Assembly (NCBI GenBank): GCA_963976645.1
Contig: CAXBLK010000002.1
Coordinates: forward strand, 10,159-74,158
Direction: 5' to 3'
Length of the DNA stretch: 64,000 nt
From: an uncultured Rhodobacterales bacterium
Lineage (GTDB): Bacteria; Pseudomonadota; Alphaproteobacteria; Rhodobacterales; Rhodobacteraceae
Below are positions 28,815-60,008 of the stretch, piece by piece. The translations under genes were made by a program, and so were the position numbers. Below the pieces are notes generated by a model, which saw only the letters and a list, made by a program, of their open reading frames with translations, was not told the origin of the DNA and did not search any database. Each line of letters begins with the position of its first letter. The first letter of the stretch is position 1.

Positions 28815-30024
28815 GAATTCCTGCGCCCTGGTGATTGGCGCCGGCCCGGCGGGTCTGATGGCCGCCGATGCCCTGTTGCGCGCGGGTCTGCGCGTTGTCA
28901 TGGCCGAGGCCAGGCCTTCACCCGCGCGCAAGCTGCTGATGGCGGGAAAATCCGGGCTGAACATTACCAAGGACGAGGACAAGGACCTGTTCCTGACCCG
29001 CTACGCCGAGGCCGCCGACTGGCTGCGCCCGATGATTGCCGCCTTCGGCCCGGCGCAGGTCCGGTCCTGGGCGCGGGAACAGGGCCAGACAGTGTTCACC
29101 GGGTCAAGCGGCCGGGTGTTTCCCAGATCCATGAAGGCCTCACCGCTGTTGCGCCATTGGCTGGCCGATCTGGCGGCGCGCGGGCTGGACCTGCGCACCC
29201 GCTGGCGCTGGACCGGGTTGCAGGGCAGCGAAGTCGGTTTCGAAACCCCGCAAGGCCCCCGAACCCTGCACCCGGCGGTAACGGTCCTGGCCCTGGGCGG
29301 GGCCAGCTGGGCGCGGCTTGGGTCGGATGGCGCCTGGGCGGCGATCCTGGCGCGGCATCGGGTGCCGCTTGCGCCTTTCCAGCCTGCGAATATCGGCTTT
29401 CAGGTTTCCTGGACGCCCCACATGGCCCCGCATTTCGGCGCGCCGCTGAAATCCATCGCGCTGACCTGTGGCGCGCAGCGGATCGAGGCCGAGGCAGTGA
29501 TCTCCAGCGACGGGATCGAAGGCGGCGGCATTTATGCCGTCAGCCGCGCCTTGCGCCGGGGCGCGCCGCTGTTTATTGACCTTTTTCCAAGGCAAGGCGT
29601 TGATTTGATAGCGAATAAGCTAACCAATCGACCCCAGGGAGAAACCCGCGTCAACACGCTGCGCAAGGCGTTGAAGCTAAGCGGCGCGCGGCTGGCGCTG
29701 GCGCTGGAATGCGCAAACCCCCTGCCCGGTGACCCAACGCAGGCCGCGATGCGCCTCAAGGCGCTGCCGGTTCCGGTCACCGGGCCGCGCCCGATGGATC
29801 AGGCGATTTCCACGGCGGGGGGCATCCCACAGGCGGCTTTGACAGACGGGCTGATGCTGCGCGCCCTGCCCGGCGTTTTTGTCGCCGGCGAAATGCTGGA
29901 TTGGGAGGCCCCGACAGGCGGCTATCTGCTCACCGCCTGCCTGGCGACCGGCCGATGGGCGGGCGACCACGCGGCGCGTTGGTTACTGGAAAACCCCGGT
30001 CAGGATCAGCCTGCTGCCGATTGA
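28804..30024 (+). CDS. HI0933/BaiN-like NAD(P)/FAD-dependent flavoprotein
   Basis: IGAGPAGLMAA, KLLMAGKSGLNIT, GSSGRVFP, LALGGASW, AISTAGG and GEMLDWEAPTGGYLLT. Confidence 0.88.
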   Translation: MTPENSCALVIGAGPAGLMAADALLRAGLRVVMAEARPSPARKLLMAGKSGLNITKDEDKDLFLTRYAEAADWLRPMIAAFGPAQVRSWAREQGQTVFTGSSGRVFPRSMKASPLLRHWLADLAARGLDLRTRWRWTGLQGSEVGFETPQGPRTLHPAVTVLALGGASWARLGSDGAWAAILARHRVPLAPFQPANIGFQVSWTPHMAPHFGAPLKSIALTCGAQRIEAEAVISSDGIEGGGIYAVSRALRRGAPLFIDLFPRQGVDLIANKLTNRPQGETRVNTLRKALKLSGARLALALECANPLPGDPTQAAMRLKALPVPVTGPRPMDQAISTAGGIPQAALTDGLMLRALPGVFVAGEMLDWEAPTGGYLLTACLATGRWAGDHAARWLLENPGQDQPAAD

Positions 30025-30648
30025 AAACCGCCCCGCGATGGTATCGCCTGCGCGAAACGGCGCGACGGCGCCCTGAAACACCGCCTTGAATGTGCGATCG
30101 CCGGGAAACACTGTGATACCCAGCGTGTCAAACCCGAAGATTTGCCCGCTGCGGGGAAACTGCGCCTTGTAGGCGCACTCCTTGATGCTGAAGATCAGCC
30201 GCGCGGCCCGGCCCGGTGTTTCCTGCGCCGTGACCCAGGCCCGTTCCTCGTCGGTCAGCACTGTTGACCAAATGTCACCGGGCAGATCTTCATCCAGTTC
30301 CAGATCGATACCGATCATCGAACCCGCCGCGCCAGCGACTGCCAGCGCCCATTCCCCGGCATGGGTGACAGATCCGGTTGTGCCGCCAGGCCAGACGGGC
30401 GCGCGGTTCGCTGCCATGGGAATCGCGGTGTCCTGCCCCAGGGCAAGGCGCGCGGCCTGCCGACCAGCGGCGAATTCCCGCCGCCGCGCGGGGATCGCCC
30501 CGGCGATGGCGGGCTTTTCGATATCGAACAGCGCCCCAGGATCGGCATCGGCGATCTGCACAATGCCAACCCCGGCCGAGGCCCCAAACACCCCGGTCGC
30601 CATGCGGCCAAGCGATTGCCGGCGGCTGATGGTGTCTGCGGCGCTCAC
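29983..30648 (-). CDS. 4'-phosphopantetheinyl transferase (EntD/Sfp-like)
   Basis: RRREFAAGR, PVWPGGTTGSVTH, IGIDLE and FSIKECAYKAQ. ATGA-coupled to the NRPS. Confidence 0.9.
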   Translation of the reverse strand: MSAADTISRRQSLGRMATGVFGASAGVGIVQIADADPGALFDIEKPAIAGAIPARRREFAAGRQAARLALGQDTAIPMAANRAPVWPGGTTGSVTHAGEWALAVAGAAGSMIGIDLELDEDLPGDIWSTVLTDEERAWVTAQETPGRAARLIFSIKECAYKAQFPRSGQIFGFDTLGITVFPGDRTFKAVFQGAVAPFRAGDTIAGRFSIGSRLILTGVFQ

Positions 30649-33600
30649 CCCAACCGGCTCAGCCGTTCCGCGCGCATCGCCCGGCGGCGTGACATGGCAT
30701 CCTGGCGCCCGCGCGCCGCCTGGCTTTCCGCCCGCGCGCCAAACCCGGCCGCGTCGGAATCTGGCGCGCCGGATTCTGCCGTGGCCGGCACCGGGCTTAC
30801 CGGTTTCAGCTTAGCGTCGATATGACCTGCCAGCGCCGACAGGACCGGGAAGCGGAACACATCGGTGATCGACAAACCGGGCAACGACAGGGCTTCGCGA
30901 ATGTCGCGGTGCGCCTGCACGGCCAGCAAGGAATGCCCGCCCAGCAGGAAGAAGTTGTCGGTCGGTTTGACATCGCCAACACCCAGAACCGCGCGCCAGA
31001 TCTCGGCAATCCGGGCCAGCGTATCGCCGCCATTGGCCGCGACCGGCGCTTCAAACACGGCAGGGCGAACGATACCGGGTGCGGGCAGCGCCTTGCGGTC
31101 GATCTTCTTGTTCGGGGTCAGCGGGAACTGTTCCAACTTGACGACATGCGCGGGCACCAGATGCGCGGGAAGCGTTTCGGCAAGGGCGCTGCGCAAGCCT
31201 GATCCATCGGCGCTGCCGGTGACATAGGCCACCAGCCGCACATCGCCCGGCGCGTCCTCTCGCGGGATGACCACGCTTTGGGTGACGCCGGGCAGGGCGT
31301 CCAGCGCGGTTTCGATTTCCCCCAGCTCGATGCGGAAGCCCCGGATCTTGACCTGATGATCGGCGCGGCCCAGGAAATCCACCGTGCCATCGGCGCGCAG
31401 GCGCACCAGATCGCCGGTCCGATACATCCGCCCCGGTGCAAAGGGATTGTCGATGAAACGATCCGCGGTCAGGCCCGGTTGGCGCCAGTAGCCGCGCGCC
31501 ACACCTGCGCCGCCAATCCACAATTCCCCCTCGGCCCCGACAGGCACCGGGTTTCGCGCCGCGTTCAGAACATGCAGCGTCGTGTTGGCAATGGGCGTGC
31601 CGATCCCGACAACCCCGTCACCGCCCCGGCTCTGGCTGGTTGTCGACCAGATGGTGGTCTCGGTCGGGCCATACATGTTCTGCACCGGCGCCCCGGTGAT
31701 CTGTGCCAGATCCTGCGCCAGCGCACCCGGCAGCGCCTCTCCGCCGATCATCATGTGATCGACGCGGGCCAGCGCCGCGCGCGCGTCATCGTTCTCCACG
31801 ATCATGCGCGCCATCGAAGGCGTGCATTGCAGATGACTGACACCGTGCCGCCGGATCTGCGCCGACAGCGAAAAGTCGTCTTCGGCCAGTTGCGTGGGCG
31901 CATTGGAGCGTCGCAACACCTCGGCCAGCGGATAGAGCCCCTCGAGCACCTGCTGAACCGGGATGCCATAGTCGATCAGGCAACCGATTTCATCGACGCC
32001 AATCGCCTTGAGCTGCTCCACGCGGCGCAAGCAATCCTCGACCGTGCCGAACAGGCCCGAATCTTCAAAATACCGGTTAAAGGCGTAATCCAGAATGCCG
32101 TCTACCTCATCCTGGCTCAGGCTGGCCAGGTCGATATCCATGGGATTGGACACGCCCTTGGGTTTCTTGAAGGCCGGGAAGGCCCAGGCGTATTGCTTGA
32201 CCAGCCCGGCGGCGGCCAGCAGGTAGGTCTTCATCGGCTCGCGCGCGGTGTCGCGGGCCAGGTCGCGGCTGCGCGCAACATAGGTGTGCAGCATCAGCGT
32301 GACGCTGAAATCCTTGGGGTCATGGCCCGCCTTGCGCAGCGCCTCGTGGTAGATCTTGATCTTGCCCGCAACCTCGTCGATCGACTGGCCCAGCAGATGC
32401 GTCAGCACATTCGCGCCGATTTCGCCGGCCTCGCGCCAGGTATCGGGGTTGCCGGCGATGGTCAGCCACAGCGGCAGTTCCTTGGACACCGGGCGCGGCA
32501 GCGACTGCACGCTGCGGGTTTCGCCGTTGTGATCGAATTCGACCGATTCGCCGCGCCACAGGCGGCGGATCTTGTCGATCGTGTCGAACATCGCCGCCTT
32601 GTTGCCCGGCACGCTGTTTTCCGGGCGCAGCACGAAATCCACCGGGTGCCAGCCGCTGGCGATGCCCAGCCCGGCGCGCCCGTCGGTCAGGTTGTCGATC
32701 ACCGCCCAGTCTTCGGCGATGCGGATCGGATGATGCAGCGGCGCCACGCAAGAGCCTGAGCGCACGGCGATGTTCTTCGTCACCGCCGCCACGGCGGCAC
32801 CCGTCACCGCCGGATTGGGATAGGGTCCGCCGAACGCGTGAAAATGGCGCTCGGGCGTCCAGACGGCCGAGAACCCGTGGGTATCGGCGAATTTCGCGCC
32901 TTCCAGCAGCAATTCATATTTCTGTGGACCGGGACCATCGTCATTGCCCCAGTAGAACAGGCTGAAATCCATCGGCTTGTCCGACACAGGCAAGGAGCCG
33001 CCCGAGACCAGCATCCGGTCCTGATCCGATGTCAGAACCAGCTTGAAGCCGCGCGACAGGGTCCAGAACAGTTCCAGCACGGAAATATCGAAGGACAGCG
33101 AGGTCACGGCCAGCCAAACGCCCGCCGGATCATGCTGAATGCGGTCATCCATCCCGGCAAAGAAATTGGCCACGTTGCGGTGCTCGACCATCACGCCCTT
33201 TGGCAGGCCTGTCGAACCCGAGGTGTAGATCAGATAGGCCAGATTTTCAGGCCCGGCCCCGGATTGCGGATTCTCGTTGCTGGCCCGCGCCAGGCGGATA
33301 TCAGTGTCCAGCACCAACAACTCGCCGGTGTGTTCCGGCAACGTATCGATCAGCGCCGATTGGGTGACGATCACGGGCGCGGCGCTGTCGGTCAGGAAAT
33401 GGCGCAGGCGGTCGGCGGGATAGGACGGATCCATCGGCACATAGGCGCCGCCAGCTTTCAGGATGCCCAGCGCGCCGATCAGCAATTCCGGCGCGCGGCG
33501 GGTGCACAGCGCAACCGCGACATCGGGCCCGACGCCCATATCCTGCAACACCGCCGCCACCCTGTTGGCGCGCGCGTTCAGGTCGCCATAGGTCAGGGTT

Positions 33601-35216
33601 TGCCCCTCGAACACCAGCGCGGTGGCGTCCGGCGTGCGGGCGACTTGCGCCTCAAACAGCCGAGAGATCGTTTGGCTGTCGAAATCGCGCGCGGTGGCGT
33701 TGACCTGGTCGAACAGCGCCTGCTCGGTCGGGCTGATCAATTCGGCCGACGTCAGCGGCACATCGCCTTGGGCGTTGGCCAGCAGGGCAATGCGATCGGC
33801 GAACAGATCCAGTTTGGCCTGATCCGTCAGGCTCAGGTCGGCGGACAGGATGCAATCGGCCTCACCGACAATCAGACACAGCGCCGTGCCGTCAATATGC
33901 GCACCATCGGTCGACAGGCCCAGCGCGGGCATGGAAAGCGGCGATAGCGCCGGGTCACGGCCGATCAGGTCGCGCGGGTAAGAGGGGTGTTTTTGAACGC
34001 GCTCCAACGCGGCGGTGATGCCTGCCGTCCGCTCGGACAGCGTGTCGCCCTGCGGGGTCAAGGGCACCCAAGGGGCGATATGCCCCGGCGCGGATTGGTG
34101 CAGGGAGGCCGTATCCGCGCTGACGCAAGCCCAGCCGCCGGGAACATATTGTGCAATGATTGCCGCCGCGCGGGTGGCGTCAACCGGCAGCTCGCGCGTG
34201 GCGAACCCGCGCCCAACGGATTTCGCAGCCGCCATTTCACTGGCCGAAAACCCGGTCAAAGCCTTGCGCCAAAACCCCTCGCCCGGGGTGATCCGGGCCA
34301 TGGCAGCGGTCAGCGCCGGGCTTTGACCAAAGGTCAGCGCGTCGCCCACCGGTGCAATTTGATCCGCAGTCACCGGCAGTCCGCCCAGGCAGGCAAAGCC
34401 CGACAACCGCACCGCGCCGTCTGCGCAAGCGACCACCAGGGTGTCGCCGACCTCAAGAACCGTGCCCGGTGCGCCCGTTCCCTGCGCGGGTTCCGCCTGT
34501 GAAACAGCAAACACGCCCGCCGCGCTTTCGATCTTTGGCAGGGCCAGCGGGTTCCAGTAGCCGCCATGATCCAGCGCGCGCACCATGCGCAGCAGTTCAG
34601 AGGCCGGGCGGCTGAAATCCAGCCGTGCGGCGGTGTCGGGGCGGTCATTCTTGCGGCAAAGCGTGCGCTGGCTCAGGTCTTGCCTGCGCCGGTTCATCGC
34701 CCCGGTTTCCAGCGCGGCGACAACGGCGGGAAAGCTTTCGATCGCCGCGCCGTAGCAGCGGGCGTTCAGGGAAAAGGCGGTATCGTCGTCGCCAATGTCA
34801 AAGGTGACCTGCTCCAGGATATCGCCCTCATCCACGCCACCCTGGATCATGTGCCAGGTGATGCCGTGGCGCATTTCGCCGTTCAGCGCAGCCCAGACCG
34901 GTGCGTTCAGTCCGGCATAGCGGGGCAGGGGGCCGTCATGGAAGTTCACCGCGCCCTGACGGGCCTTCGCCAGCAGCGCATCGGGCAGAACCGACAGATT
35001 TGCAATCGACAGCAGCCAGTCGAACGGCGCGGTGATCCGGTGCTCCAGCCCGGCGCCCGGTTCGACCACCTCGACCCCGGCGCCCCGCGCCCAGGCGATG
35101 ACGTCGGCATTGTGGCTGACGACGGTCTGAATACCGTGTCCGCGCCCCAGCAAGATCTTGGCGCACTGAACCAGAAGCGATTCATTGCCAACCAGAACAC
35201 ATGAAAACGAGGCCAT
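30645..35216 (-). CDS. NRPS-like loading module: formyltransferase - adenylation domain interrupted by a luciferase-like monooxygenase - PCP
   Basis: Formyltransferase motifs NFHDGPLPRYAG and GVDEGDI. A-domain cores YTSGSTGLPKG, FDISV, YGPTETT, YRTGD and GRADHQVKIRGFRIE. LLM motif WTPERHFHAFGGPYPNP. PCP FFLLGGHSL. Confidence 0.93.
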   Translation of the reverse strand: MASFSCVLVGNESLLVQCAKILLGRGHGIQTVVSHNADVIAWARGAGVEVVEPGAGLEHRITAPFDWLLSIANLSVLPDALLAKARQGAVNFHDGPLPRYAGLNAPVWAALNGEMRHGITWHMIQGGVDEGDILEQVTFDIGDDDTAFSLNARCYGAAIESFPAVVAALETGAMNRRRQDLSQRTLCRKNDRPDTAARLDFSRPASELLRMVRALDHGGYWNPLALPKIESAAGVFAVSQAEPAQGTGAPGTVLEVGDTLVVACADGAVRLSGFACLGGLPVTADQIAPVGDALTFGQSPALTAAMARITPGEGFWRKALTGFSASEMAAAKSVGRGFATRELPVDATRAAAIIAQYVPGGWACVSADTASLHQSAPGHIAPWVPLTPQGDTLSERTAGITAALERVQKHPSYPRDLIGRDPALSPLSMPALGLSTDGAHIDGTALCLIVGEADCILSADLSLTDQAKLDLFADRIALLANAQGDVPLTSAELISPTEQALFDQVNATARDFDSQTISRLFEAQVARTPDATALVFEGQTLTYGDLNARANRVAAVLQDMGVGPDVAVALCTRRAPELLIGALGILKAGGAYVPMDPSYPADRLRHFLTDSAAPVIVTQSALIDTLPEHTGELLVLDTDIRLARASNENPQSGAGPENLAYLIYTSGSTGLPKGVMVEHRNVANFFAGMDDRIQHDPAGVWLAVTSLSFDISVLELFWTLSRGFKLVLTSDQDRMLVSGGSLPVSDKPMDFSLFYWGNDDGPGPQKYELLLEGAKFADTHGFSAVWTPERHFHAFGGPYPNPAVTGAAVAAVTKNIAVRSGSCVAPLHHPIRIAEDWAVIDNLTDGRAGLGIASGWHPVDFVLRPENSVPGNKAAMFDTIDKIRRLWRGESVEFDHNGETRSVQSLPRPVSKELPLWLTIAGNPDTWREAGEIGANVLTHLLGQSIDEVAGKIKIYHEALRKAGHDPKDFSVTLMLHTYVARSRDLARDTAREPMKTYLLAAAGLVKQYAWAFPAFKKPKGVSNPMDIDLASLSQDEVDGILDYAFNRYFEDSGLFGTVEDCLRRVEQLKAIGVDEIGCLIDYGIPVQQVLEGLYPLAEVLRRSNAPTQLAEDDFSLSAQIRRHGVSHLQCTPSMARMIVENDDARAALARVDHMMIGGEALPGALAQDLAQITGAPVQNMYGPTETTIWSTTSQSRGGDGVVGIGTPIANTTLHVLNAARNPVPVGAEGELWIGGAGVARGYWRQPGLTADRFIDNPFAPGRMYRTGDLVRLRADGTVDFLGRADHQVKIRGFRIELGEIETALDALPGVTQSVVIPREDAPGDVRLVAYVTGSADGSGLRSALAETLPAHLVPAHVVKLEQFPLTPNKKIDRKALPAPGIVRPAVFEAPVAANGGDTLARIAEIWRAVLGVGDVKPTDNFFLLGGHSLLAVQAHRDIREALSLPGLSITDVFRFPVLSALAGHIDAKLKPVSPVPATAESGAPDSDAAGFGARAESQAARGRQDAMSRRRAMRAERLSRLG

Positions 35217-35217
35217 A

Positions 35218-36162
35218 TCAACTCTCCCGGGAAATGCGCGTTCCCCAACTGTGTTTCACAAGATCACGGAGAAAATGTGGCGGGGTATGGGGTTTCTTGC
35301 GGCCCGCCAGCACGCGCAGCCCGTAAACGCCCAGCCCGGCGATATGCGCGGCGGTTGCCAAACCCGCGTAAAGCCTGCCGTGGTTCTTTTCAAAATAGTG
35401 ACGACGCGAGGCGAACCAGTAGCCTGGCACGCGCTGCCATTCCTTCATGCCGGTGCTGACCGATCCCAGATGCATCACCCGGCTTTCGACCACATAGACC
35501 GTGGGCCACCCGGCCATCGCGGCGCGGCGGCACAGGTCGGTTTCCTCGAAATACAGAAAGAAGGCCTCATCAAACAGACCGACCTGATCCAGCACCGACT
35601 GGCGCATCAGCACGCTGGCCCCGGCCAGCCAATCCACCCGGGCGGTTTGCGTGGGCAGATCGGGCGCGACAATGGCGTTTTTCAGCAGTCTCGAAATCGG
35701 GCCGGTTTTCGCCGCCCCCTCGAACTCGCCGGCGATGGATGGAAAGCGAAAGGCGCTGACGTGGGGAACGCCATCTTCGCCGTAGATATGGCTGCCCGCG
35801 AAGCCGACATCGGGGTTCTGTTCCAGATACGCCACCAGGCCAGAGATCGCATCCGGGTCCGGAAAGGCGTCCGAGTTCAGGATATAGACAAAATCCGGAC
35901 TGGATCCATCCGGCAGGCCTGCGCGAATGCCGAAATTGTTGCCCGCGCCATAGCCGCCATTGCGCCCGGATTGCAGCACCCGCACGCGCGGCCAATCGGC
36001 GGCGGCGGCGCTCATGGCTTCGAAGCTGCCATCCAGGCTGTCATTGTCGACAATCGTGATGGCGCCCTCGATCCCCTCCATCGCCGTGATCGCGGCTTGC
36101 GCGGCGCGCAGGGTCATGTCGGGCGTGCGCCAGTTCAGGATCACACACAGAACGCGGCTCAT
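35218..36162 (-). CDS. Glycosyltransferase family 2 (WbbL/RfbF-like)
   Basis: VILNW, VDNDS, NGGYGAGNN, LNSDA, WLAGAS and FFLYFEETDLC. Sandwiched between the PKS and NRPS. Confidence 0.9.
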   Translation of the reverse strand: MSRVLCVILNWRTPDMTLRAAQAAITAMEGIEGAITIVDNDSLDGSFEAMSAAAADWPRVRVLQSGRNGGYGAGNNFGIRAGLPDGSSPDFVYILNSDAFPDPDAISGLVAYLEQNPDVGFAGSHIYGEDGVPHVSAFRFPSIAGEFEGAAKTGPISRLLKNAIVAPDLPTQTARVDWLAGASVLMRQSVLDQVGLFDEAFFLYFEETDLCRRAAMAGWPTVYVVESRVMHLGSVSTGMKEWQRVPGYWFASRRHYFEKNHGRLYAGLATAAHIAGLGVYGLRVLAGRKKPHTPPHFLRDLVKHSWGTRISRES

Positions 36163-46036: not shown

Positions 46037-46171
46037 GACTGCCCACGGGGATACGGCAGCCGCTTTGCCCCTGTCCAGCACGCAAGGTTATTGCCCGTGC
46101 CCTCTGGGCAAAGCCCGCGCGATGTGTTGCATTCCTGCCAAGCGGAAAAACGGCAGCGAAAGGACAGATCC

Positions 46172-50349: not shown

Positions 50350-50406
50350 GATGCGCGCCCCTTGTCCGGGCGGATCTATGCCGCATGATGCGGGGTTTTG
50401 GAAGGG

Positions 50407-50720: not shown

Positions 50721-51005
50721 AACGCCGCGCGGCTCCAGCGTCAGCCCGGTGATCCCTAATTCCTGCTCCAGCCGGCGATGCGCGCAGTCCAGCGGATCTT
50801 CACCCCACACGGGATGCGTGCAGCAGGTATTCGCCCACAGACCGGGTGTGTGATACTTGCCCAGCGCCCGGCGCTGGATCAGCAGGCGCCCCTGGCACAC
50901 CACGAACACCGACACCGCCGGATGCCGCAGGCCCTGTCGATGCACGGCCAGCTTGTCCATCGGCCTGAGCTGACCGTCGATCCACGCGGGAATATCCTGT
51001 TGCAT
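50646..51005 (-). pseudogene. Truncated idi copy: first 95 codons fused out of frame to wzz sequence
   Basis: Identical to Idi up to ...LEPRGV, then NASSCLNARWCP...stop. It lacks the EHEVVD catalytic region. Confidence 0.85.
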
Positions 51006-51062
51006 GATGCGCGCCCCTTGTCCGGGCGGATCTATGCCGCATGATGCGGGGTTTTGGAAGGG

Positions 51063-52364: not shown

Positions 52365-52377
52365 CGCGGATCCCCCG

Positions 52378-53271: not shown

Positions 53272-53386
53272 CCTCTGACCGCCGTTCTGGCGGATCTGCG
53301 CCCTATGCTACGCCCGTGATGACGCAAAACCCTGTCACAAATAGGGCAAAACAGCGAAGATTGCGCCCCGTCGCGCAACAGCAGGC

Positions 53387-54733
53387 CTAGAGAGCAAAGA
53401 CCTGCGCCAGCTGCGCGCCATGCAGCAGCAGGACCAGGCCCAGCAGTCCGGCCGCCAGGGCCGCCATGATCGCGTCATGCAGCGGATCCCAGGCGCCATG
53501 CCTGCGCGCCAGCCGCACTTGCAGCGGATAGCTGAGCAGCGCGGTCGAGGCCATGGCCAATGGCGCGCCGGGCAGGCCCATCATCGGCACCAGAATGACC
53601 AGCAGGATCACCAGCATCACCGCGCGCGCGGCGTTCAGCGCGAAGAACCCGCGCGAATCACCCGAGGCCAGCGCCACCTGGTCATAGGTCAGGCCCAGCA
53701 TTTGCGGCAGCAGCGCCAGGCTGACGATGGTCGTCACCGCGCCCGAGGTCGCGTAGCGCGCATCATAGAGGAAATCGACGATATAGATCCCACCCAGCGC
53801 CAGCGGAGCGACGCCGCCGATCAGGAACAGCGACAGCATGAACCGGATGCGGCGCAGGCGCGCGAAATTTTCGGCCGAGTCCCTTGGCGGGCTGGCGCGG
53901 TAGATGGGGATCATCAGCCGCTGCACCAGCAACTGACCCAGCATCAAGGGAAACCCGGCCAGAAAGAAGCCGATGTTGTAAAGGCCCAGTTCCTCAAGCG
54001 TCAGGTAGTGACCCAGAATCAGCTTGTCGCTTTGCAGCACGATGAAACCGGCCACGGTGCTGAAGAAGATCCAGCGGCCATAACGCACCAGTTCGCTGGC
54101 CGAAGCGCGTTCCAGACGCAGCCGGTTGGAGATCCCCGGCAGCATGACCCAGGCCAGACCGGCGCGGGCGCCAGCGGCCACCACATTGCCGATCACCAGC
54201 GCCCAGATCGAACCGGTGATCCATGCCAGGATCAGCATCACGGTGATGCTGATGACCTGCGCCGACATCTCCATGAGCGTGACGCGTCCCAGGGCCATGT
54301 GCCGCGACGCGGTTTCGGCGCGCGTCGGCTCCAGCGCGAGCAGCAAGATGCTGGTGGCAGCGACCGGGATCAGTTGAAACAGGATCGGTTCCTGGTAGAA
54401 CCAGGCCATCGGCCAGGCCAGCGCCGAGGCGGCAAGGAACAGGACCACGGCGCGGACGATGTTCAGTGTCCAGGCCGTGTTCAGAAACGCCGGATCATCG
54501 CCGCGCTTTGAGCTTTGAATGGCGGGCTGGATGCCCAGATCGGACAGCATCGTCAGACCGATCAGCAAAACCGTGACCAGCGCCATGGTGCCGAAGGCTT
54601 CCGGGAACAGCAGCCGCGCCAGGATCAGGTTCGATCCGAAGCGGATCGCCTGCTGCGCGCCAAAACCCATGATGGTAAATGCCGACGACCGCATGATGCG
54701 GCTCATCAGGCCGCCGGAACCGGGTGTGCTCAT
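53387..54733 (-). CDS. Wzx-like oligosaccharide flippase
   Basis: LILARLLFPEAFG, SDLGI, LNTAWTL, QSDKLILG and LGLYNIG, with ~12 hydrophobic segments. Confidence 0.88.
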   Translation of the reverse strand: MSTPGSGGLMSRIMRSSAFTIMGFGAQQAIRFGSNLILARLLFPEAFGTMALVTVLLIGLTMLSDLGIQPAIQSSKRGDDPAFLNTAWTLNIVRAVVLFLAASALAWPMAWFYQEPILFQLIPVAATSILLLALEPTRAETASRHMALGRVTLMEMSAQVISITVMLILAWITGSIWALVIGNVVAAGARAGLAWVMLPGISNRLRLERASASELVRYGRWIFFSTVAGFIVLQSDKLILGHYLTLEELGLYNIGFFLAGFPLMLGQLLVQRLMIPIYRASPPRDSAENFARLRRIRFMLSLFLIGGVAPLALGGIYIVDFLYDARYATSGAVTTIVSLALLPQMLGLTYDQVALASGDSRGFFALNAARAVMLVILLVILVPMMGLPGAPLAMASTALLSYPLQVRLARRHGAWDPLHDAIMAALAAGLLGLVLLLHGAQLAQVFAL

Positions 54734-54945
54734 GATTGCTGCGTCTGCCAAAACAAGGGTCTTTCCTGATAATTGCACCGATTCGACGGCGGGCAACCGC
54801 CAGAGTTCTGGCCGTTTTCCCTGATTTGCCCGCCAAATGAGGCAATGTTGTGACATCGGCGCGCCTTGGCTTTTCCGCGCCGGTTACTTGAATTCGCCAG
54901 ATTTGCTCCGTAGCGCTGGGCACGCAAAAACGAACAGGTGCCTGC

Positions 54946-56166
54946 GTGAAAGTCGGATACATCCTTAATACCTACCCGTCGCCGTCGCACAGTTTCATCC
55001 GCCGCGAGATGCTTGCGCTGGAGCGGCTCGGCGTGGCGGTGCACCGGTTTGCGATGCGGCCTTTCGACGGGTCGCTGTCGGATGCCGGCGATCAGGACGA
55101 GGCCGCAAGGACGGAATATGTGCTGGCGCGCGGCGTGCTGGCGATGATCTGGGCGGTGTTCGTGAACGGTTTGCGGGCACCGACGCGGATTTACAGCGCG
55201 CTGGGCCTTGCGCTTCGGGCGTCTCGCGGGTCCGAGGCCGGGGTGTTCAAGCATCTGGTCTATTATCTTGAGGCCGCATTGGTTGCGCGCCGCGTGGTCG
55301 AGGAAAACATTGACCGCGTTCACGCGCATTTCGGCACCAACGCGGCAACGGTGGCGATGCTGGCGGCGGAAATGACCGGGCGGCAATTCAGCTTCACGGT
55401 GCATGGCCCCGAGGAATTCGACAAGCCCGCCGCCATCGCCCTGCCCCTGAAGATCAGGCGCGCGGATTTCGTCGTGGCGATCAGTTCGTATGGGCGCAGC
55501 CAGCTGTGCCGGCTGGTAAGCCACCGCCATTGGGCGCGGATCCGTGTGGTGCATTGCGGGATCGAGCCGCAGAACTACACCGCCGCGCGCCCGATGCCGC
55601 CCGCGCGCCCGCTGACGCTGGTCAATATCGGGCGCTTTGCCGAACAAAAGGGCCAGTTGCTGCTGATCGAGGCGATGGCCGAAATCGTGCGCCGGGGTGT
55701 CGATGCCCGTCTGGTGCTGGTCGGCGATGGCGAGTTGCGCACCCCGGTCGAACGCGCGATTTCCCATGCCGGGCTGGGGCATCATGTGGAACTGGCGGGC
55801 TGGTTGGATGAAGCTGGCGTGCGCCGCGCGCTGGAAGAAGCCCATGCGCTGGTCTTGCCGTCTTTTGCCGAGGGGCTGCCGATGGTGGTCATGGAGGCCA
55901 TGGTCACGGCCCGCCCGGTCATTGCCACCTGGATCGCCGGCGTGCCCGAACTGATGCAGCACGGGCGCACCGGATGGCTGGTGCCCGCGGGCGATGTGGC
56001 CGCGCTGGTCGAGGCGATCACCGAGATGAGCGCCACCGATGGCGAGACCCTGCGCCGGATGGGCACGACCGGGCGGGCCCGGGTCTTGCAGCGCCACAAT
56101 ATCGATACCGAAGCCGCGAAGCTGGCCGGGTTCTTCGCTCAGCGGCCGCGCACCCAGCCGCGTTGA
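54946..56166 (+). CDS. Glycosyltransferase family 4 (WcaL-like)
   Basis: GYILNTYP..SHSFIRRE, HAHFGTN, FTVHGPEEF, GRFAEQKG and SFAEGLPMVVMEAM (E-x7-E). Confidence 0.92.
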   Translation: MKVGYILNTYPSPSHSFIRREMLALERLGVAVHRFAMRPFDGSLSDAGDQDEAARTEYVLARGVLAMIWAVFVNGLRAPTRIYSALGLALRASRGSEAGVFKHLVYYLEAALVARRVVEENIDRVHAHFGTNAATVAMLAAEMTGRQFSFTVHGPEEFDKPAAIALPLKIRRADFVVAISSYGRSQLCRLVSHRHWARIRVVHCGIEPQNYTAARPMPPARPLTLVNIGRFAEQKGQLLLIEAMAEIVRRGVDARLVLVGDGELRTPVERAISHAGLGHHVELAGWLDEAGVRRALEEAHALVLPSFAEGLPMVVMEAMVTARPVIATWIAGVPELMQHGRTGWLVPAGDVAALVEAITEMSATDGETLRRMGTTGRARVLQRHNIDTEAAKLAGFFAQRPRTQPR

Positions 56167-56963
56167 CGTCCCCATCCGGCGCGCACCGCCAGGGTGACCG
56201 CCGCATAAGTGCCAAACCCCAGGGGGTCGCGCAGCAACTGGCGCAGCAACCAGCCCTTGCCGGGGCTGTCCTTGCCTTCATTGGCCAACAATTCAGGCTC
56301 TAACCCGGCCAATTCGGCCACACCCTGATCCTGTCGCCGCCGCACGCGCACCAGCGGCGCGAATCCTTCGACCATGGGCCAGTCATAGGATGCCGGGACC
56401 TTCTCGCGCTCGGCCGGGGTAAACTGGATGCGCACAAAGGTGTCGTCTGAAATGATCGGCGGAAACCGCCCCCAGCGCGCGCGCCCCGCCGCGTTCACGG
56501 CGTAAAGGCCAAACCCCGGCACCCCCTGCGCGACAAACGGCAACCGCACCCAGAACCGGGCATAGGCGCGGGTGATCCACGAGCGCGCGGTGACGCGGGG
56601 CGTGCCGGACGCATAACGCGCCGCATCGCCCCCCAGGGCCTGCGCGATCTGCGCCAGCAAGTGCGGCGAGACGATCACATCGGCATCCAGATAGGCGCGC
56701 GCGCCATGCCGCGCGGCATCATCGCCCGCGTTCAGCGCGCCGGGCTTGCCCAGCGCGGGCAGATCCAGGACGATCAGGTGCCAACCTTTGTCCGCGGCTT
56801 GCCGGGCGAAGGCCTTGGCGCGCGCCACCGTGTCATCGGTGCAGCCATTGGCGGCAACGATCACCTGCGCCCCCGTCACCCCGCCCGACGCAAACACCGC
56901 CGTCAGGCAGGCGTCGATATAGCCGCCCTCGTTGCAGGCGGGGATGATGATGCTCAGGCTCAT
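56139..56963 (-). CDS. Glycosyltransferase family 2
   Basis: IIIPACNEG, NGCTDDT, GKPGALN, YLDAD and ISDD. Confidence 0.88.
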   Translation of the reverse strand: MSLSIIIPACNEGGYIDACLTAVFASGGVTGAQVIVAANGCTDDTVARAKAFARQAADKGWHLIVLDLPALGKPGALNAGDDAARHGARAYLDADVIVSPHLLAQIAQALGGDAARYASGTPRVTARSWITRAYARFWVRLPFVAQGVPGFGLYAVNAAGRARWGRFPPIISDDTFVRIQFTPAEREKVPASYDWPMVEGFAPLVRVRRRQDQGVAELAGLEPELLANEGKDSPGKGWLLRQLLRDPLGFGTYAAVTLAVRAGWGRQRGWVRGR

Positions 56964-58642
56964 GGGGCGGTTGCCTCCATCAGCGCGTCCCAGCGCGGAT
57001 TGCTGTCATCAAGATGCCGCAGCGCGCCCCAGCTGCCCCAGACCGAAGGCTGGCCGATATCGATATAGGCGCTGAACGGCGCGTCGGTCAGGGTTTTCCA
57101 CCCGGCGATCAGCGCGCGATACAGATCGCCCATCTGCGCCGAGTAATTCAGCGCGGTGAAAAACGCCACCAGGTCGGCGTCGTCCTGGGCTTCGGGGCGC
57201 ACGGTCACATGGGTGCCGCCCTCATACATCACCAGCGCAAGGTCATAGGACCGGGCGACCGCGGCCTGGTAGGTCAGCGTGCGGTCGATCAGGTCACGGA
57301 CCGAATTTTCCGGATTGCCCGAAACCGATCCGTCCAGCAAGTCCCGCCCGGCAAGATCCAGCGCCAGATCGAACCGGGTCTCGGCCAGATAGGCGTCGCG
57401 CGCGTCGCCCGTCAGCCCCAGATCGTCGGCGCGCGATTCCGCGTCCGCGCGGCTTTGCGCCAGCCAGCCGCGGATCATCGGCAGCTTTTCTTCGGTATGC
57501 AGTTCGGAAGAAAAATATCCGGTCACGGCAACAGCGTCGAAGAACTCATACGGGGGGCGATTGGTTGGATCCTCGGCGACGAAATCGGGCGCCTCCAGCA
57601 TGTCGTTCTCCAATCCCAGCCAGCCGGTGAACAGGCCCAGCACCCGCACCCGGCGCTCGGGCGCGTCGGCATAGACATCGTCGATGATGCGCATCACCTC
57701 GGCGGCGCGGACGGCGCCGTATTGGACCCAGGCCCAGTCCCGGTTCCAGCGCGCCTGAGCCGCCTGTTCCGCCCAGTCGGCCTGGGCAAAGCTCCAGTTC
57801 CAGATCTCGTTGGAAAATTCGAACCAGCCGCGCAAGCCCGGGCGCAGCCCGTCATGCACCATCAGCGCAAATTGCGCGACATAGTCATCATCCGCCAGAT
57901 GGGGCAGGGTGAACCACGGCTCGGCGCCGGTGTCATTGGCCAGCTGGATCATGATTTCCAGCGGCACCCCGCGCCGCGCCCAGCTATAATCGGCCACCCG
58001 TGCGCGCTGATCCCAGGTGCTGACCTCGGAATTGTTGGTCAGCATCCAGTCCATGAAGCGGAATTGTTCGGCATCGCCGATGCGCGCCAGCCAATCGGGG
58101 TTGAAGACCGCGCCGTCGGCAAAGGCTTGCAGGTTGCGCTCGTGGACGACCCTCAGGTTGCGCACGCTGCCACGGTTGAACTCGATGATCACACCGCCAT
58201 TGCCCGGCTCGAAATCGAAACTGGCCGCGTTGTCGCCGAAGCGGACATTGCGCGCGGCGCCGGAAAACCCCAGATAGGCGGTGCCTTCCCAGGTCGCATA
58301 CCAGCGCCCGGCGGTCGAGGTCATGCCGGCCGGCAGATCCACCAGCACCGAGGTGGACAGCCGCCGCGCGGTGCGCGGCACGCCGGTGGGCCAGCCGTTT
58401 TCGTCCAGCACCCCGGCCTCGAACAGCGCGGCCTCGTCCAGGCCGCCCCACTGGCCGGGCAGATGCCCGATCCAGCGGGTGGCGTTGCGCATCGCATCGA
58501 TGAACGGCAGTTCGGTGGACCAGCCGACGACCTCGGCCAGGTTCAGCGCCAGCGCGCGCCGCCCCTCGCGCGGGGCCACATCAACCTGCGCCGCGGCCGC
58601 CAGCGGCCAGAGCAGGGTCATCAGGATCAGGATCAGTCTCAT
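56960..58642 (-). CDS. Secreted protein, putative clan GH-A-like glycoside hydrolase
   Basis: Sec signal peptide (MRLILILMTLLWPLAAAA-Q), FRFMDW, FEFSNEIWN (NE acid/base-like) and MYEGG (nucleophile-like). ATGA-coupled to the GT2 gene. Confidence 0.6.
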   Translation of the reverse strand: MRLILILMTLLWPLAAAAQVDVAPREGRRALALNLAEVVGWSTELPFIDAMRNATRWIGHLPGQWGGLDEAALFEAGVLDENGWPTGVPRTARRLSTSVLVDLPAGMTSTAGRWYATWEGTAYLGFSGAARNVRFGDNAASFDFEPGNGGVIIEFNRGSVRNLRVVHERNLQAFADGAVFNPDWLARIGDAEQFRFMDWMLTNNSEVSTWDQRARVADYSWARRGVPLEIMIQLANDTGAEPWFTLPHLADDDYVAQFALMVHDGLRPGLRGWFEFSNEIWNWSFAQADWAEQAAQARWNRDWAWVQYGAVRAAEVMRIIDDVYADAPERRVRVLGLFTGWLGLENDMLEAPDFVAEDPTNRPPYEFFDAVAVTGYFSSELHTEEKLPMIRGWLAQSRADAESRADDLGLTGDARDAYLAETRFDLALDLAGRDLLDGSVSGNPENSVRDLIDRTLTYQAAVARSYDLALVMYEGGTHVTVRPEAQDDADLVAFFTALNYSAQMGDLYRALIAGWKTLTDAPFSAYIDIGQPSVWGSWGALRHLDDSNPRWDALMEATAP

Positions 58643-58835
58643 GCCGGGGGCTCCGTTTGCACGCCGTGGCAGGGGTCAGCGCGGCTCACCGGCGCTGCGG
58701 GTGCCGATCCTTGCACAATTCTTGATCCCGCGGGGCTTCGCGGGGCGCCATACCCCGATTTTGGACGGACTTTGCTCGACATTCCACAGTTTTTTCTTAC
58801 TAGTTGAAGATGTTGGAACGTGAACGGGTCTTTGT

Positions 58836-60008
58836 ATGGCTTCCCTCCTGATGCTTTCCCCGGCGCCGGTCGTCGAACGCGCGGGCGGCGAAGTGATTCT
58901 GGACGTGAAATTCGTCGAGGGGATGAAGCTGCATTGCCAGCTGTGGCCGGGCCCGGTGCGCTGCATTCTGTGGCGCGGGCAAACCCAGATTGACGAGCCG
59001 CTGCGCTATTCGGTGCAACAATTGGGATTTGACCTGATCTTGCTGGATGCAGGCGCGCCGGTGCCGGAATTGCTGTTGGAAGAAAGCAGCATGGTCTATT
59101 GCGCGGCCGATGACATGAAGCATCTGGACCTGCCGAAGACCATGCGCGGCCGGATCGGCAAGGTCGTCTATACCGTGGAACAATCGCTGGCCGGGCGCAT
59201 GGCGGCGGGGATCGCGCAACAGGCCAAGATCCGGCGGCGTATCGGCTCGGCTGTATGGAACCTGCGCAACGAGCGGCATCTGCGCGCGGCGCTGGCCCAG
59301 TCGGACGGTGTGCACTGCAATGGCTACCCGTCGCGCGATGCCTATTCGCGCCTGAACCCCGCGCCGCTGTTCTACCTGGACAACCGGATGCGCACGCCGA
59401 TGCTGGCCCGCGGCACCGAGCAAGCGGCGCGCGCCGACCGGCTGCGCGCGGGCGCGCCGCTGCGGCTGGCGTGGTTCGGCATGCTGACGCCGGAATCCAA
59501 CGCGCTGGATTTCCTGCCGGTCGCGCAGCTTCTGACCCTGCGCAATGTGCCGTTTGAAATGGACCTCATCGGCACCGGGCCGCTGGAAAACCGCCTGCGC
59601 GACGGGATCGCCGGGCTTGGCCTGGGCACGCAGATGCGCCTGTCGCGCCCCCAAGGATTCGATGCGCGTCTGGTGCCCCGGATGCGCCAACAGGCCGATC
59701 TGTTCCTGTCCGCCCGCCGCCTGCCGACGCCGCTGTCATCCTATGTCGAGGCGCTGGGCTGCGGGCTGCCGGTCCTGGGCTACCGCAACGCCATGTTCCG
59801 GCGCCTGCTGCGCGAGTCGGAAGCCGGGTGGATGACGCCGCGCCGCACGCCCGGATCCCTGGCGCGCCAGATCGAACGCCTTGATCGGAACCGCGAATTG
59901 ATCATCGAGGCGTCAGCCAAAGCGGTCAATTTTGCCCGCGCCAACAGCTTCGAATCGGTCTTTGCCCGCCGCATGACCCATCTGCGCGACATTGCGCATC
60001 TGGAATAG
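58836..60008 (+). CDS. Divergent GT-B (GT4-like) glycosyltransferase
   Basis: LIGTGPLE and YVEALGCGLPVLG in the C-terminal Rossmann-like domain. The N-terminus is atypical. Confidence 0.7.
   Translation: MASLLMLSPAPVVERAGGEVILDVKFVEGMKLHCQLWPGPVRCILWRGQTQIDEPLRYSVQQLGFDLILLDAGAPVPELLLEESSMVYCAADDMKHLDLPKTMRGRIGKVVYTVEQSLAGRMAAGIAQQAKIRRRIGSAVWNLRNERHLRAALAQSDGVHCNGYPSRDAYSRLNPAPLFYLDNRMRTPMLARGTEQAARADRLRAGAPLRLAWFGMLTPESNALDFLPVAQLLTLRNVPFEMDLIGTGPLENRLRDGIAGLGLGTQMRLSRPQGFDARLVPRMRQQADLFLSARRLPTPLSSYVEALGCGLPVLGYRNAMFRRLLRESEAGWMTPRRTPGSLARQIERLDRNRELIIEASAKAVNFARANSFESVFARRMTHLRDIAHLE

Follow-up and report, generated by a model that had tools for sequence, protein, structure and literature searches.

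An orphan megasynthase block of the marine Roseobacter group was found to lie inside a polysaccharide export locus and to be inherited together with it, so what it makes most likely forms part of a surface polysaccharide and is not a free antibiotic. The 64-kb window (the whole stretch of DNA analysed) carries adjacent PKS, glycosyltransferase, NRPS and PPTase genes that match, in their number, order and bacterial family, the conserved PKS/GT/NRPS/PPTase cluster of that group, whose product was given as unknown (Martens et al. 2007, as cited in PMC4337385 and PMC5014874) and which was still an orphan in 2023 (PMC10584327). The window's four-gene block is a member of this family, as the preliminary description of the DNA had correctly stated; we found no literature report of a product, papers to date have always classed it as a secondary-metabolite BGC (PMC4337385, PMC5014874, PMC10584327), and polysaccharide genes are not mentioned in the searchable text of papers on it. 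The link between the orphan block and sugar genes is what is new here. On balance, we lean towards one integrated pathway, a Wzx/Wzy-type glycan assembly line with its own NRPS–PKS module, rather than a chance-adjacent secondary-metabolite cluster.

As described earlier, the Wzy-like gene is followed on the minus strand by a 92-nt gap and then by the PKS, GT2a, NRPS and PPTase genes. The junctions, read from the sequence, are operon-like: the wzy stop codon (TAG, 42595-42593) precedes the PKS ATG at 42500 with no terminator-like site in the 92-nt gap, PKS and GT2a overlap by ATGA (36162-36159), GT2a and the NRPS gene are separated by 1 nt at 35217 (TGA-t-ATG, 35220-35214), and the NRPS and PPTase genes overlap at 30648-30645 by GTGA, not by the ATGA previously given. 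The block is surrounded by a Wzx/Wzz/BY-kinase/WecG/GT2/GT4 locus (Pfam and NCBIfam annotation of the window), in which the previously listed Wzx, Wzz-like, BY-kinase, WecG/TagA, two additional GT2, two GT4 and secreted glycoside hydrolase (GH)-like genes were all recovered in place, and domain annotation likewise bore out the absence of efflux, resistance and regulator genes from the locus. The locus also contains idi (49828-50349) and a plus-strand insert (46031..49757) encoding a thiolase-domain protein, an acyl-CoA synthetase and a 273-aa protein of no assigned function (NCBIfam PRK07516, 669 bits; PRK07470, 866 bits), neither of which the preliminary description mentioned. The insert occurs in 6 of 14 congeners and in none of 80 named loci; it is lineage-specific and probably not part of the system.

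Of 400 Rhodobacteraceae genera, 140 (about a third) carried the full NRPS (orthologues 52-83% identical), and the 40-kb context of this gene was compared in 50 genera drawn evenly. Relatives of the glycan genes lay within ~14 kb of the block in all 50, in at least four gene orders, and the window's housekeeping neighbours (HI0933-like flavoprotein, idi and HAD phosphatase), which served as an internal control, lay near it in none; a same-strand Wzy or Wzx gene stood immediately 5' of the PKS in 44. Glycan-assembly genes adjoined the block in 14 of 14 congeners (with the entire locus collinear in 12) and at all inspected 'exception' loci, and glycan-gene relatives flanked it, in three or more arrangements, at the 80 named loci from many genera. 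Common occurrence of the block without polysaccharide genes, which by the preliminary description would count against its proposal, was not borne out: no such case was encountered among the 50 genera, the congeners or the inspected exceptions. In Erythrobacter, the transferred copy is immediately preceded, on its own strand, by genes for a WbaP-like priming transferase and WecG; that in Hydrogenophaga is flanked by GT4 and WecG, and the Ruegeria ANG-S4 copy has two GT4 genes and a priming transferase upstream and rmlABD downstream. Across the 400 genera, co-occurrence counts (both, NRPS only, partner only, neither) were 128/12/13/247 for the NRPS and the GH-like protein and 128/12/19/241 for the NRPS and the WecG relative (19 genera had a WecG relative but no NRPS, and in 12 with the NRPS no WecG relative was detectable), with odds ratios of 135-200 from raw genus counts uncorrected for phylogeny. 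The association is far beyond chance, and the block is gained and lost jointly with the glycan genes.

The NRPS (30645..35216, minus strand) is a loading module without a C domain, F-A(Gly)-PCP, with an LLM monooxygenase inserted in the A domain (F, ~34997-34362; A N-part, ~33656-33018; LLM, ~32966-31917; A C-part, ~31895-31104; PCP, ~31013-30819). Its Pfam matches were Formyl_trans_N/C, AMP-binding (in two stretches), Bac_luciferase and PP-binding, the LLM domain matched TIGR04020 (MupA/Atu3671 LLM, 474 bits), and the A domain also matched DltA models; the best solved relative in the PDB was LgrA (714 bits), with a further match to PuwE (348 bits). The specificity code is DILQMGMIWK in the window and DILQ[MLFY]GMIWK in 63 of the 64 NRPS orthologues compared (DILQLGLIWK in the other), and the F-domain N/H/D residues and the PCP Ser are conserved. 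These residues support the predicted glycine specificity and an active F domain, in agreement with the loading module proposed earlier; formyl-Gly loading is established chemistry (PMC5764310). The monooxygenase, previously placed after the NRPS domains and suggested to oxidise the finished unit, is not C-terminal but sits between A4 and A5 of the glycine A domain, and this placement, together with the A-embedded FMO domains of MtaG/MelG and SolF, which yield alpha-hydroxyglycine (PMC10204066), suggests that its most likely target is the C-alpha of carrier-bound glycine, which it would hydroxylate, and not a finished chain. Because the module contains F and lacks C, the hydroxylated residue would be the starter.

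The PKS (36159..42500, minus strand; first residues MSADPQ...IAIVGMA from the ATG at 42500) is a single-module type I enzyme with the Pfam domain order KS-AT-KR-DH-T-TE, in which KR precedes DH (KS, ~42467-41334; AT, ~40892-40077; KR, ~39032-38457; DH, ~38345-37554; carrier, ~37229-37041; TE, ~36923-36480). The motifs TACSTS/HGTGT/NIGH, GHSMGE, GGFGGIG/YVAAN and HRTKDATALVPG were read, along with a PCP-like carrier motif (GGHSL) and a TE motif (GFSGG...GDHDS) with a normal Ser/Asp/His hydrolase set; the best PDB match of the KS-AT region was 8xju (697 bits). Together, the NRPS and PKS would make a short formyl-(hydroxy)glycine-derived acyl unit, or a longer one if the PKS iterates. Between them, GT2a (35218..36162, minus strand; Pfam Glyco_tranf_2_3, 59 bits) is a soluble GT2 family glycosyltransferase with strong orthologues (E<=1e-100) in 133 genera, all NRPS-positive; in Tabrizicola-type loci, it lies apart from the PKS, among glycan GTs. 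GT2a belongs to the glycan GT set; sister loci of NRPS-less genomes carry a paralogue (33-42% identity) beside WecG. The PPTase (29983..30648, minus strand), an Sfp-type 4'-phosphopantetheinyl transferase (Pfam 4PPT_N, 58 bits; ACPS, 46.5 bits) whose GTG start overlaps the NRPS stop, adjoins the NRPS in 42 of the 50 genera.

Upstream of the PKS, an integral membrane protein of the Wzy_C/O-antigen-ligase superfamily (42593..44110, minus strand; Pfam Wzy_C, 30.6 bits, just below the 31.7 cut-off; ~8 or more hydrophobic spans) could be either a polymerase or a ligase; Wzy-like genes flank the block in 35 of the 50 genera, directly upstream of the PKS in 25. The WecG/TagA/CpsF-family glycosyltransferase (44292..45056, plus strand; Pfam Glyco_tran_WecG, 154 bits; TIGR00696, 106 bits), of a family that typically adds the second sugar to an Und-PP-linked primer, is near the block in 46 genera, as are both a Wzz-type co-polymerase, or chain-length determinant (51063..52364, minus strand; Pfam Wzz, 33.7 bits; TIGR03007, 113 bits, under its cut-off), and a BY-kinase-like P-loop ATPase (52378..53271, minus strand), the separate kinase half of a PCP-2b-type pair with weak matches to TIGR03018 (69.7 bits) and TIGR01007 (49.4 bits), both under their cut-offs. 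The Wzx-type MOP flippase (53387..54856, minus strand; Pfam Polysacc_synt_3, 148 bits) recurs near the block in 37 genera, directly upstream of the PKS in 19. Three further glycosyltransferases recur as well: GT2b (45071..46081, minus strand; Pfam Glycos_transf_2, 49.9 bits) in 41 genera, GT4a (54946..56166, plus strand; Pfam Glyco_trans_1_4, 123 bits) in 43 and GT2c (56139..56963, minus strand; Pfam Glycos_transf_2, 60 bits) in 36. GT4b (58836..60008, plus strand; Pfam Glycos_transf_1, 35.8 bits), found in 12 of 14 congeners but in only 1 of the 50 other genera, is a genus-specific member of the locus. A minus-strand ORF at 54730-56175, of low-complexity R/H/Q/P-rich composition, was rejected as an antisense artefact of the GT4a gene. 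Neither Wza nor a priming phosphoglycosyl transferase was seen in the window's locus; a relative of the latter is encoded on another contig, and a Bac_transf priming enzyme (Und-P) belongs to the locus in 29 of the 50 genera.

The secreted GH-like protein (56960..58642, minus strand; signal peptide present) had no sequence match in Pfam, NCBIfam or PDB. Its AF2 model (pLDDT 95.5, 76 sequences) matched GH10, GH53, GH5, GH1 and PgaB-C by Foldseek (probability ~1), and the predicted fold is an N-terminal beta-sandwich plus a clan GH-A-like TIM barrel of no existing family; N278-E279 and E474 are invariant. The gene is near the block in 34 of the 50 genera, and the protein is a signature partner of the NRPS.

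From these components, we infer the chemistry, including covalent linkage to the glycan and where on it this occurs, as follows. The PPTase would prime both carrier domains, the A domain would load glycine onto the PCP, the F domain would N-formylate it and the embedded flavin monooxygenase would hydroxylate its C-alpha. The KS would then join this starter and one malonyl unit on the PKS carrier, and KR and DH would produce a 4-formamido-(4-hydroxy)-3-hydroxybutanoyl or -but-2-enoyl thioester (longer if the module iterates). At the cytoplasmic face, the TE would move the acyl group onto a sugar hydroxyl or amino group of an undecaprenyl-PP-linked repeat unit made by the priming transferase, WecG and the GT2/GT4 enzymes, with the acceptor sugar supplied or extended by GT2a. 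Transfer by the TE is assumed here on the analogy of Pks13, and the 64-kb window encodes no dedicated acyltransferase for sugar acylation; the putative attachment of the acyl unit to the glycan is likely. The decorated unit would be flipped by Wzx and polymerised or ligated by the Wzy_C-family protein, chain length would be set by Wzz and the BY-kinase, and the polymer may be trimmed or released by the GH-like protein.

Instead of being a side-chain decoration, the NRPS–PKS product might serve the glycan as its aglycone, primer or terminal cap. The chain would then begin on the Gly-derived acyl unit or be ligated to it at the end; either GT2a would glycosylate a hydroxyl installed by the monooxygenase or KR, or the polymer would be ligated onto the unit by the Wzy_C/WaaL-like protein. 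Consistent with this are the position of GT2a between PKS and NRPS, the polymerase/ligase ambiguity of the sole Wzy_C-family protein and its frequent place directly upstream of the PKS (25 of 50 genera), the hydroxyl that the embedded monooxygenase would give the starter (PMC10204066), and the precedent of WcbR/RkpA, with a proposed role in capsule anchoring (PMC3908369). However, a normal Und-P priming enzyme accompanies the locus in those 29 genera and in transferred copies, a C4 unit would be too short as a membrane anchor, and the NRPS-less sister loci with a GT2a-like paralogue indicate that the megasynthase is apparently dispensable for making the glycan, which together leave such a role rather unlikely. 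A separate metabolite that is co-regulated with matrix production (for example, a biofilm-stage signal or antibiotic) could also account for the clustering; it would be released by TE hydrolysis and might be a formyl-Gly polyketide glycosylated by GT2a. The long handling of the cluster as a secondary-metabolite BGC (PMC4337385, PMC5014874, PMC10584327), the normal hydrolase residues of the TE and the origin of other F-A(Gly)-PCP loading modules in diffusible oxazole polyketides (PMC5764310) point that way, but Wzx is the only exporter, resistance and regulator genes are lacking, a PP-loop cyclodehydratase motif (SGGxDS) occurs nowhere in the window, and the megasynthase sits inside same-strand glycan gene runs in 44 of 50 genera. 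That the block is gained and lost along with a secreted glycosidase and WecG, and that it keeps glycan genes beside it after moving into other orders, is hard to square with co-regulation alone, and we regard a free small molecule as doubtful.

Fortuitous adjacency, an island inserted in a plastic polysaccharide region with no functional meaning, is highly improbable and already contradicted. Polysaccharide loci are common insertion hot spots, and the window's own locus holds the unrelated thiolase/acyl-CoA synthetase insert and idi; however, by our own estimate, the chance of a single-copy gene lying as near as ~14 kb in a 4-Mb genome is <1%, set against glycan genes at that distance in 50 of 50 genera, housekeeping neighbours in none and the co-occurrence odds ratios above.

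Relative to the four-gene orphan cluster, the integrated pathway that we favour corresponds to a co-localised and co-inherited unit of ~13-15 genes, which adds Wzx, Wzy-like, Wzz, BY-kinase, WecG, GT2s, GT4 and GH-like genes and, in most genera, a priming transferase. Its loading module resembles OzmO, CongA, PtxE (PMC5764310) and LgrA in joining an F domain, its catalytic residues conserved, to a Gly-specific A domain and a PCP; as in OzmO/CongA/PtxE, it would hand over to a PKS KS. Unlike in these relatives, a flavin monooxygenase interrupts the A domain, only a single PKS module comes next, the OzmP/CongE/PtxD-type PP-loop cyclodehydratase is absent and the context is glycan assembly. MtaG, MelG and SolF share the luciferase-like/flavin monooxygenase between A4 and A5 of a glycine A domain, where it hydroxylates the glycyl C-alpha (PMC10204066), but they are elongation/termination modules (C-A(MOx)-PCP, with or without TE) whose chain ends as an amide or alpha-hydroxyglycine, whereas the window's NRPS is a loading module with F and without C.

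The closest analogues of the system are the WcbR/RkpA capsule PKSs and Dlt. WcbR and RkpA are encoded by type I PKS genes within the Burkholderia and Sinorhizobium capsule (wcb/rkp-1) clusters, likewise among surface-polysaccharide biosynthesis and export genes, and what they make is regarded as a non-sugar component of the glycoconjugate (PMC3908369). Compared by description, those clusters differ in having a PKS only, without the F-A-PCP NRPS, embedded monooxygenase, dedicated PPTase or TE-terminated single module flanking a GT2. They are ABC-transporter (Kps-type) capsule systems, whereas the window's locus is of the Wzx/Wzy/Wzz type. In Dlt (teichoic acid D-alanylation), an adenylation enzyme and a carrier protein similarly decorate a cell-surface glycopolymer and make no free metabolite; DltB/DltD-type transfer machinery is absent here, and the amino acid would instead be formylated, probably hydroxylated and PKS-extended before release by the TE.

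The four adjacent same-strand genes of the block, encoding a type I PKS, a glycosyltransferase, an NRPS and a PPTase, have the form of the cluster described by Martens in 2007, and the preliminary description had correctly placed such clusters, without a known product, in the Roseobacter group. Of 57 roseobacter genomes, 28 share a conserved NRPS/PKS/glycosyltransferase/PPTase cluster with an uncharacterised product (PMC4337385); the product had not been identified as of 2016 (PMC5014874), and a 2023 paper regards the hybrid NRPS-T1PKS cluster as novel (PMC10584327). The window's block is orthologous to this cluster, which many Rhodobacteraceae genera carry, isolates of Ruegeria and Leisingera among them. 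In Ruegeria sp. ANG-S4, a strain of the first of these studies, the corresponding NRPS, GT2 and PKS (locus L110) are 57-63% identical to those of the window. Our literature search returned no identified product, only statements that the product is unknown, and found no paper tying the cluster to polysaccharide genes. The block itself is already known; its polysaccharide neighbourhood is newly described here.

The host genome (3.1 Mb in 196 contigs, with the window on contig C2) has Pararhodobacter species as its closest named relatives. Gene calls across 29983-60008, based on Pfam and NCBIfam, place the block on the reverse strand as PPTase (29983-30648), NRPS (30645-35216), the GT2 between NRPS and PKS (GT2a, 35218-36162) and PKS (36159-42500), with a Wzy_C-like membrane protein upstream on the same strand (42593-44110, -). 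Beyond these lie a WecG/TagA glycosyltransferase (44292-45056, +), GT2b (45071-46081, -), an opposite-strand insert (46031-49757, +), idi (49828-50349, -), Wzz (51063-52364, -), a BY-kinase-like ATPase (52378-53271, -), Wzx (53387-54856, -), GT4a (54946-56166, +), GT2c (56139-56963, -), a secreted 560-aa protein (56960-58642, -) and GT4b (58836-60008, +). Housekeeping genes border the locus, with an HI0933-like flavoprotein and, farther out, a rho-mnmE-gidAB-parAB region on the left and a phosphoglycolate phosphatase on the right. These calls, together with junctions read from the sequence, bear out the gene set and order of the preliminary description, as well as its 92-nt wzy-PKS gap (between the wzy stop at 42595-42593 and the PKS start at 42500, MSADPQ...IAIVGMA), the ATGA overlap of PKS and GT2a and the 1-nt GT2a-NRPS gap; the NRPS/PPTase overlap, which it had given as ATGA, is GTGA. 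No terminator-like site was found in the wzy-PKS gap by a promoter/terminator scan, the counts of which were otherwise at shuffle level.

A 481-aa ORF at 54730-56175 (-), first taken as a gene, was rejected: it is an R/H/Q/P-rich low-complexity sequence, and its conservation in tblastn arises because it is antisense to the real, Pfam-matched GT4 gene at 54946-56166 (+). It illustrates how DNA of 65% GC can contain long ORFs that are spurious; a PDB sequence search with it gave no match. The insert in the middle of the glycan locus encodes three proteins, one with a thiolase domain (PRK07516, 669 bits), one acyl-CoA synthetase (PRK07470, 866 bits) and one of 273 aa without an assigned family; the insert occurs in 6 of 14 congeners and in none (0 of 80) of the named loci of other genera, and it may be unrelated or may be a lineage-specific acyl-CoA supplier. 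Between idi and wzz, a perfect 656-bp tandem duplication (50065-50720 repeated as 50721-51376, 0 mismatches) copies the idi 5' end and the wzz 3' end; idi-wzz spacing is ~0.1 kb in congeners, so the duplication is specific to this assembly, as either a recent event or an assembly artefact. A GC trough (0.55-0.58 versus ~0.65) at window positions 18000-26000 covers hemW, parB, parA, rsmG (gidB), mnmG (gidA), mnmE and rho, an origin-proximal set that therefore places the glycan/NRPS-PKS locus within ~10 kb of parAB-gidAB in this genus.

The whole locus is collinear in 12 of the 14 species of the genus, and in the other two, Wzy and WecG are the only locus genes left next to the block. A profile search with GT2a returned at least 593 loci, and in the best 80 of these (covering Nioella, Gemmobacter, Paracoccus, Salipiger, Roseovarius, Ruegeria, Tabrizicola, Amylibacter and others) relatives of the window's glycan genes flank the block, with at least three arrangements distinguished. 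In one, Wzy-WecG-GT2b lie upstream of the PKS; in another, that place is taken by GT2c-Wzx, and Wzz and BY-kinase follow the PPTase; in a third, the Tabrizicola type, GT2a is grouped with WecG, GT2c, GT4a, GT2b and Wzy, with PPTase-NRPS-PKS inverted. For an even sample, one genome per genus was searched for 400 Rhodobacteraceae genera, 140 of which encode a full-length NRPS, and 40 kb around the NRPS were taken in 50 of these 140, with contig room as the sole selection criterion. Within ~14 kb of the block, WecG, Wzz and BY-kinase were each found in 46 of the 50 genera, followed by GT4a (43), GT2b (41), Wzx (37), GT2c (36), Wzy (35) and the secreted 560-aa protein (34), and the controls (HI0933-like flavoprotein, idi and HAD phosphatase) were each found in 0 of 50. 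The same-strand gene immediately upstream of the PKS was Wzy (25 genera) or Wzx (19) in 44 of the 50. Loci that had looked like exceptions are glycan-flanked too; a WbaP-like priming transferase and WecG lie immediately upstream of the PKS in the Erythrobacter copy, GT4 and WecG flank the block in the Hydrogenophaga copy, two GT4 genes and a priming transferase lie upstream and rmlABD downstream in Ruegeria ANG-S4, and DegT, GT61 and GT4 flank the block in one further MAG. Beyond the Rhodobacteraceae the NRPS is uncommon, with 3 occurrences in ~320 further genomes from the phylum. The preliminary description had raised the prospect of a block commonly standing without polysaccharide genes; in the genus, named and 50-genus samples alike, glycan genes adjoin it.

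In raw counts over the 400 genera, which ignore kinship, the NRPS and the secreted 560-aa protein occur together in 128 genera, the NRPS only in 12, its partner only in 13 and neither in 247; for the NRPS and the WecG relative (E<=1e-45), the counts are 128, 12, 19 and 241, respectively. Strong GT2a orthologues (E<=1e-100) were found in 133 genera, and the NRPS in all 133. Genomes negative for the NRPS hold a distinct GT2a-like class, 33-42% identical, that adjoins WecG and secreted-protein homologues. There is thus a sister glycan locus that lacks the megasynthase, and the glycosyltransferase inside the block belongs ancestrally to the glycan set. Such sister loci without NRPS/PKS, as judged from match coordinates alone and with genes a few kb to ~30 kb apart, were seen in genomes G133, G170, G414, G417, G406, G345 and G264, with a WecG relative (49-57%), a GT2a-like paralogue (33-42%) and, in some, a GH-like homologue (35-39% identical); they could serve as a natural 'undecorated' comparison. 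Shuffled gene orders, the internal control and transferred copies all point to selection of the linkage rather than to mere inheritance. The data strongly support both a physical and an evolutionary link between the orphan NRPS-PKS block and a Wzx/Wzy-type glycan pathway.

Among the pathway components, Wzx matches Polysacc_synt_3 (148 bits) and the MOP flippase model NF007773 (74.5 bits, under its cut-off), Wzz is over its Pfam cut-off at 33.7 bits, and BY-kinase models match only under their cut-offs. The Wzy candidate, a multi-spanning protein scoring 30.6 bits against the Wzy_C cut-off of 31.7, had no relative in a PDB sequence search, nor did GT2a have a match there; the sequence of the Wzy candidate fits a polymerase and a WaaL-like ligase alike. 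The window's locus holds no priming phosphoglycosyl transferase; a priming transferase (Bac_transf) lies inside the locus in 29 of the 50 genera, and a 58% identical relative lies on another contig of this genome. Wza/OPX is missing from the ORFs in 29983-60008 and from the genes conserved at two reference loci, and the window has no dedicated sugar acyltransferase. An SGNH/GDSL-like secreted protein of ~310-335 aa, with GHSLVG and DxxH motifs and a weak DUF4886 match, is encoded immediately after the PPTase in 17 of the 50 genera and in the Erythrobacter copy (for example, at 12052-12981 (-) in locus L168, 16246-17256 (+) in L110 and 16412-17419 (+) in L084). This protein is missing from the window, with only a 40% identical partial homologue elsewhere in the genome; it may serve the system as a periplasmic acyl-transferase or esterase.

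The secreted 560-aa protein carries a signal peptide and has no Pfam, NCBIfam or PDB sequence match; 868 homologues were found, and the 120 listed are all without family annotation, any name given by a source being 'hypothetical' or 'uncharacterised'. An AF2 model from a 76-sequence alignment (pLDDT 95.5; the single-sequence model, at 37.8, was useless) resembles clan GH-A TIM-barrel glycosidases (GH10 with CBM22, GH53, GH5 and GH1) and the PgaB C-terminal domain, with fold-match probabilities of ~1 yet TM-scores of only 0.3-0.5. Asn278-Glu279 and Glu474 are invariant and would fit the GH-A acid/base and nucleophile positions. The signal peptide, model and invariant residues support the earlier label of a secreted GH-like protein, and the protein represents an uncharacterised family linked to the system. 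The GH-like protein reaches 830-1000 aa in many genera, and RTX repeats extend it in other genera; the example at 9508-12261 (-) in locus L147 has C-terminal RTX calcium-binding repeats, which suggests type I secretion there, and the window's copy has a signal peptide only.

Within the block, the NRPS comprises a formyltransferase (F) domain, an adenylation (A) domain interrupted by a luciferase-like monooxygenase, and a carrier (PCP). AMP-binding matches at residues 521-733 and 1108-1371 flank a Bac_luciferase/TIGR04020 match at 751-1100 (TIGR04020, 474 bits), inserted after the A4 motif FDIS and before the residue matching GrsA position 278. Pfam found no condensation (C) domain in the NRPS, and its N-terminus is the formyltransferase domain. 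The formyltransferase Asn/His/Asp, A10 Lys and PCP Ser are conserved, and the closest solved structures are LgrA, a formylating initiation module, for the whole NRPS and PuwE for the monooxygenase. The specificity code is DILQMGMIWK, and 64 orthologues read DILQ[MLFY]GMIWK or DILQLGLIWK, which we take to be glycine codes. F-A(Gly)-PCP loading modules make formyl-glycyl starters (PMC5764310), and A-embedded flavin monooxygenases hydroxylate the glycyl C-alpha, with alpha-hydroxyglycine persisting in solanimycin B (PMC10204066).

The PKS has the Pfam domain order KS-AT-KR-DH-carrier-TE, with an intact KS Cys/His/His, AT GHSMGE, the KR NADPH site GGFGGIG and YVAAN, the DH His motif and the TE Ser and His motifs. 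Its carrier is PCP-like (NRPS-type), with GGHSL instead of the usual ACP GxDSL, and the carrier and TE (window 36480-37229) match the EntF PCP-TE region (NCBIfam PRK10252, residues 1749-1960); on these features, the PKS release end appears to derive from an NRPS. The predicted unit would consist of a formyl-(hydroxy)glycine starter lengthened by one malonate and then reduced and dehydrated, with iteration possible because KR precedes DH.

Such a unit might decorate the glycan, act as its primer or cap, or be a separate metabolite; of these, we favour decoration, by TE-mediated transfer onto the lipid-linked repeat unit. An oxazole like that of oxazolomycin was rejected as the product, since the Ozm/Cong/Ptx route to it requires a PP-loop cyclodehydratase: SGGxDS occurs in none of the six frames of the 64-kb window, and no cyclodehydratase Pfam domain was found among the locus ORFs. 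We give even chances to the full proposal, that about a third of Rhodobacteraceae genera and scattered other Alpha- and Betaproteobacteria make a Wzx/Wzy-exported polysaccharide, either surface-borne or extracellular, with a covalently bound, N-formyl-(alpha-hydroxy)glycine-primed and malonate-extended NRPS-PKS unit, off-loaded by the PKS TE directly onto a lipid-linked sugar.

Roseobacters rank among the most abundant marine bacteria that colonise surfaces, and genome papers have filed their one widely conserved NRPS/PKS cluster under orphan 'secondary metabolite' clusters. Should the product be polysaccharide-bound, natural-product screens of culture extracts have used the wrong fraction. 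TE-mediated decoration, if true, would provide the first polysaccharide tailored by a hybrid NRPS-PKS and solve the roseobacter orphan cluster known since 2007. A polysaccharide-bound product would also mean that an abundant class of surface glycans in marine bacteria carries an undescribed non-sugar group, with possible consequences for attachment, for receptors of phages and gene-transfer agents, for algal symbiosis and for marine dissolved organic matter chemistry. The capsule-receptor cluster for RcGTA in Rhodobacter capsulatus, considered because it might include NRPS/PKS genes, was set aside, as a paper on it mentions none.

The locus shares its F-A(Gly)-PCP loading module with the Ozm, Cong and Ptx oxazole starter systems, which differ in having an adjacent ATP-pyrophosphatase cyclodehydratase (OzmP/CongE/PtxD, SGGKDS). 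Similarly, MtaG, MelG and SolF have a flavin or luciferase-like monooxygenase between A4 and A5 of a Gly-specific A domain, as here, but these are elongation or termination modules with an upstream C domain, whereas the present NRPS has an F domain instead. The known analogues for carrier-protein chemistry feeding glycopolymers are few, namely Dlt and the WcbR/RkpA capsule PKSs (PMC3908369), and the enzymology and export route proposed here differ from both; if true, our reading would extend such chemistry to a formylating, hydroxylating NRPS-PKS with TE transfer. WcbR/RkpA systems place a type I PKS inside a capsule biosynthesis and export cluster, and their likeness to the present locus is one of location only: they have ABC-transporter (KpsMT-type) export and RkpG-J/Wcb partners, whereas this locus encodes Wzx, Wzz and a Wzy-like protein and lacks an ABC transporter. 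On gene content, with a PKS that has an NRPS partner and a TE, we do not count it among the WcbR/RkpA systems.
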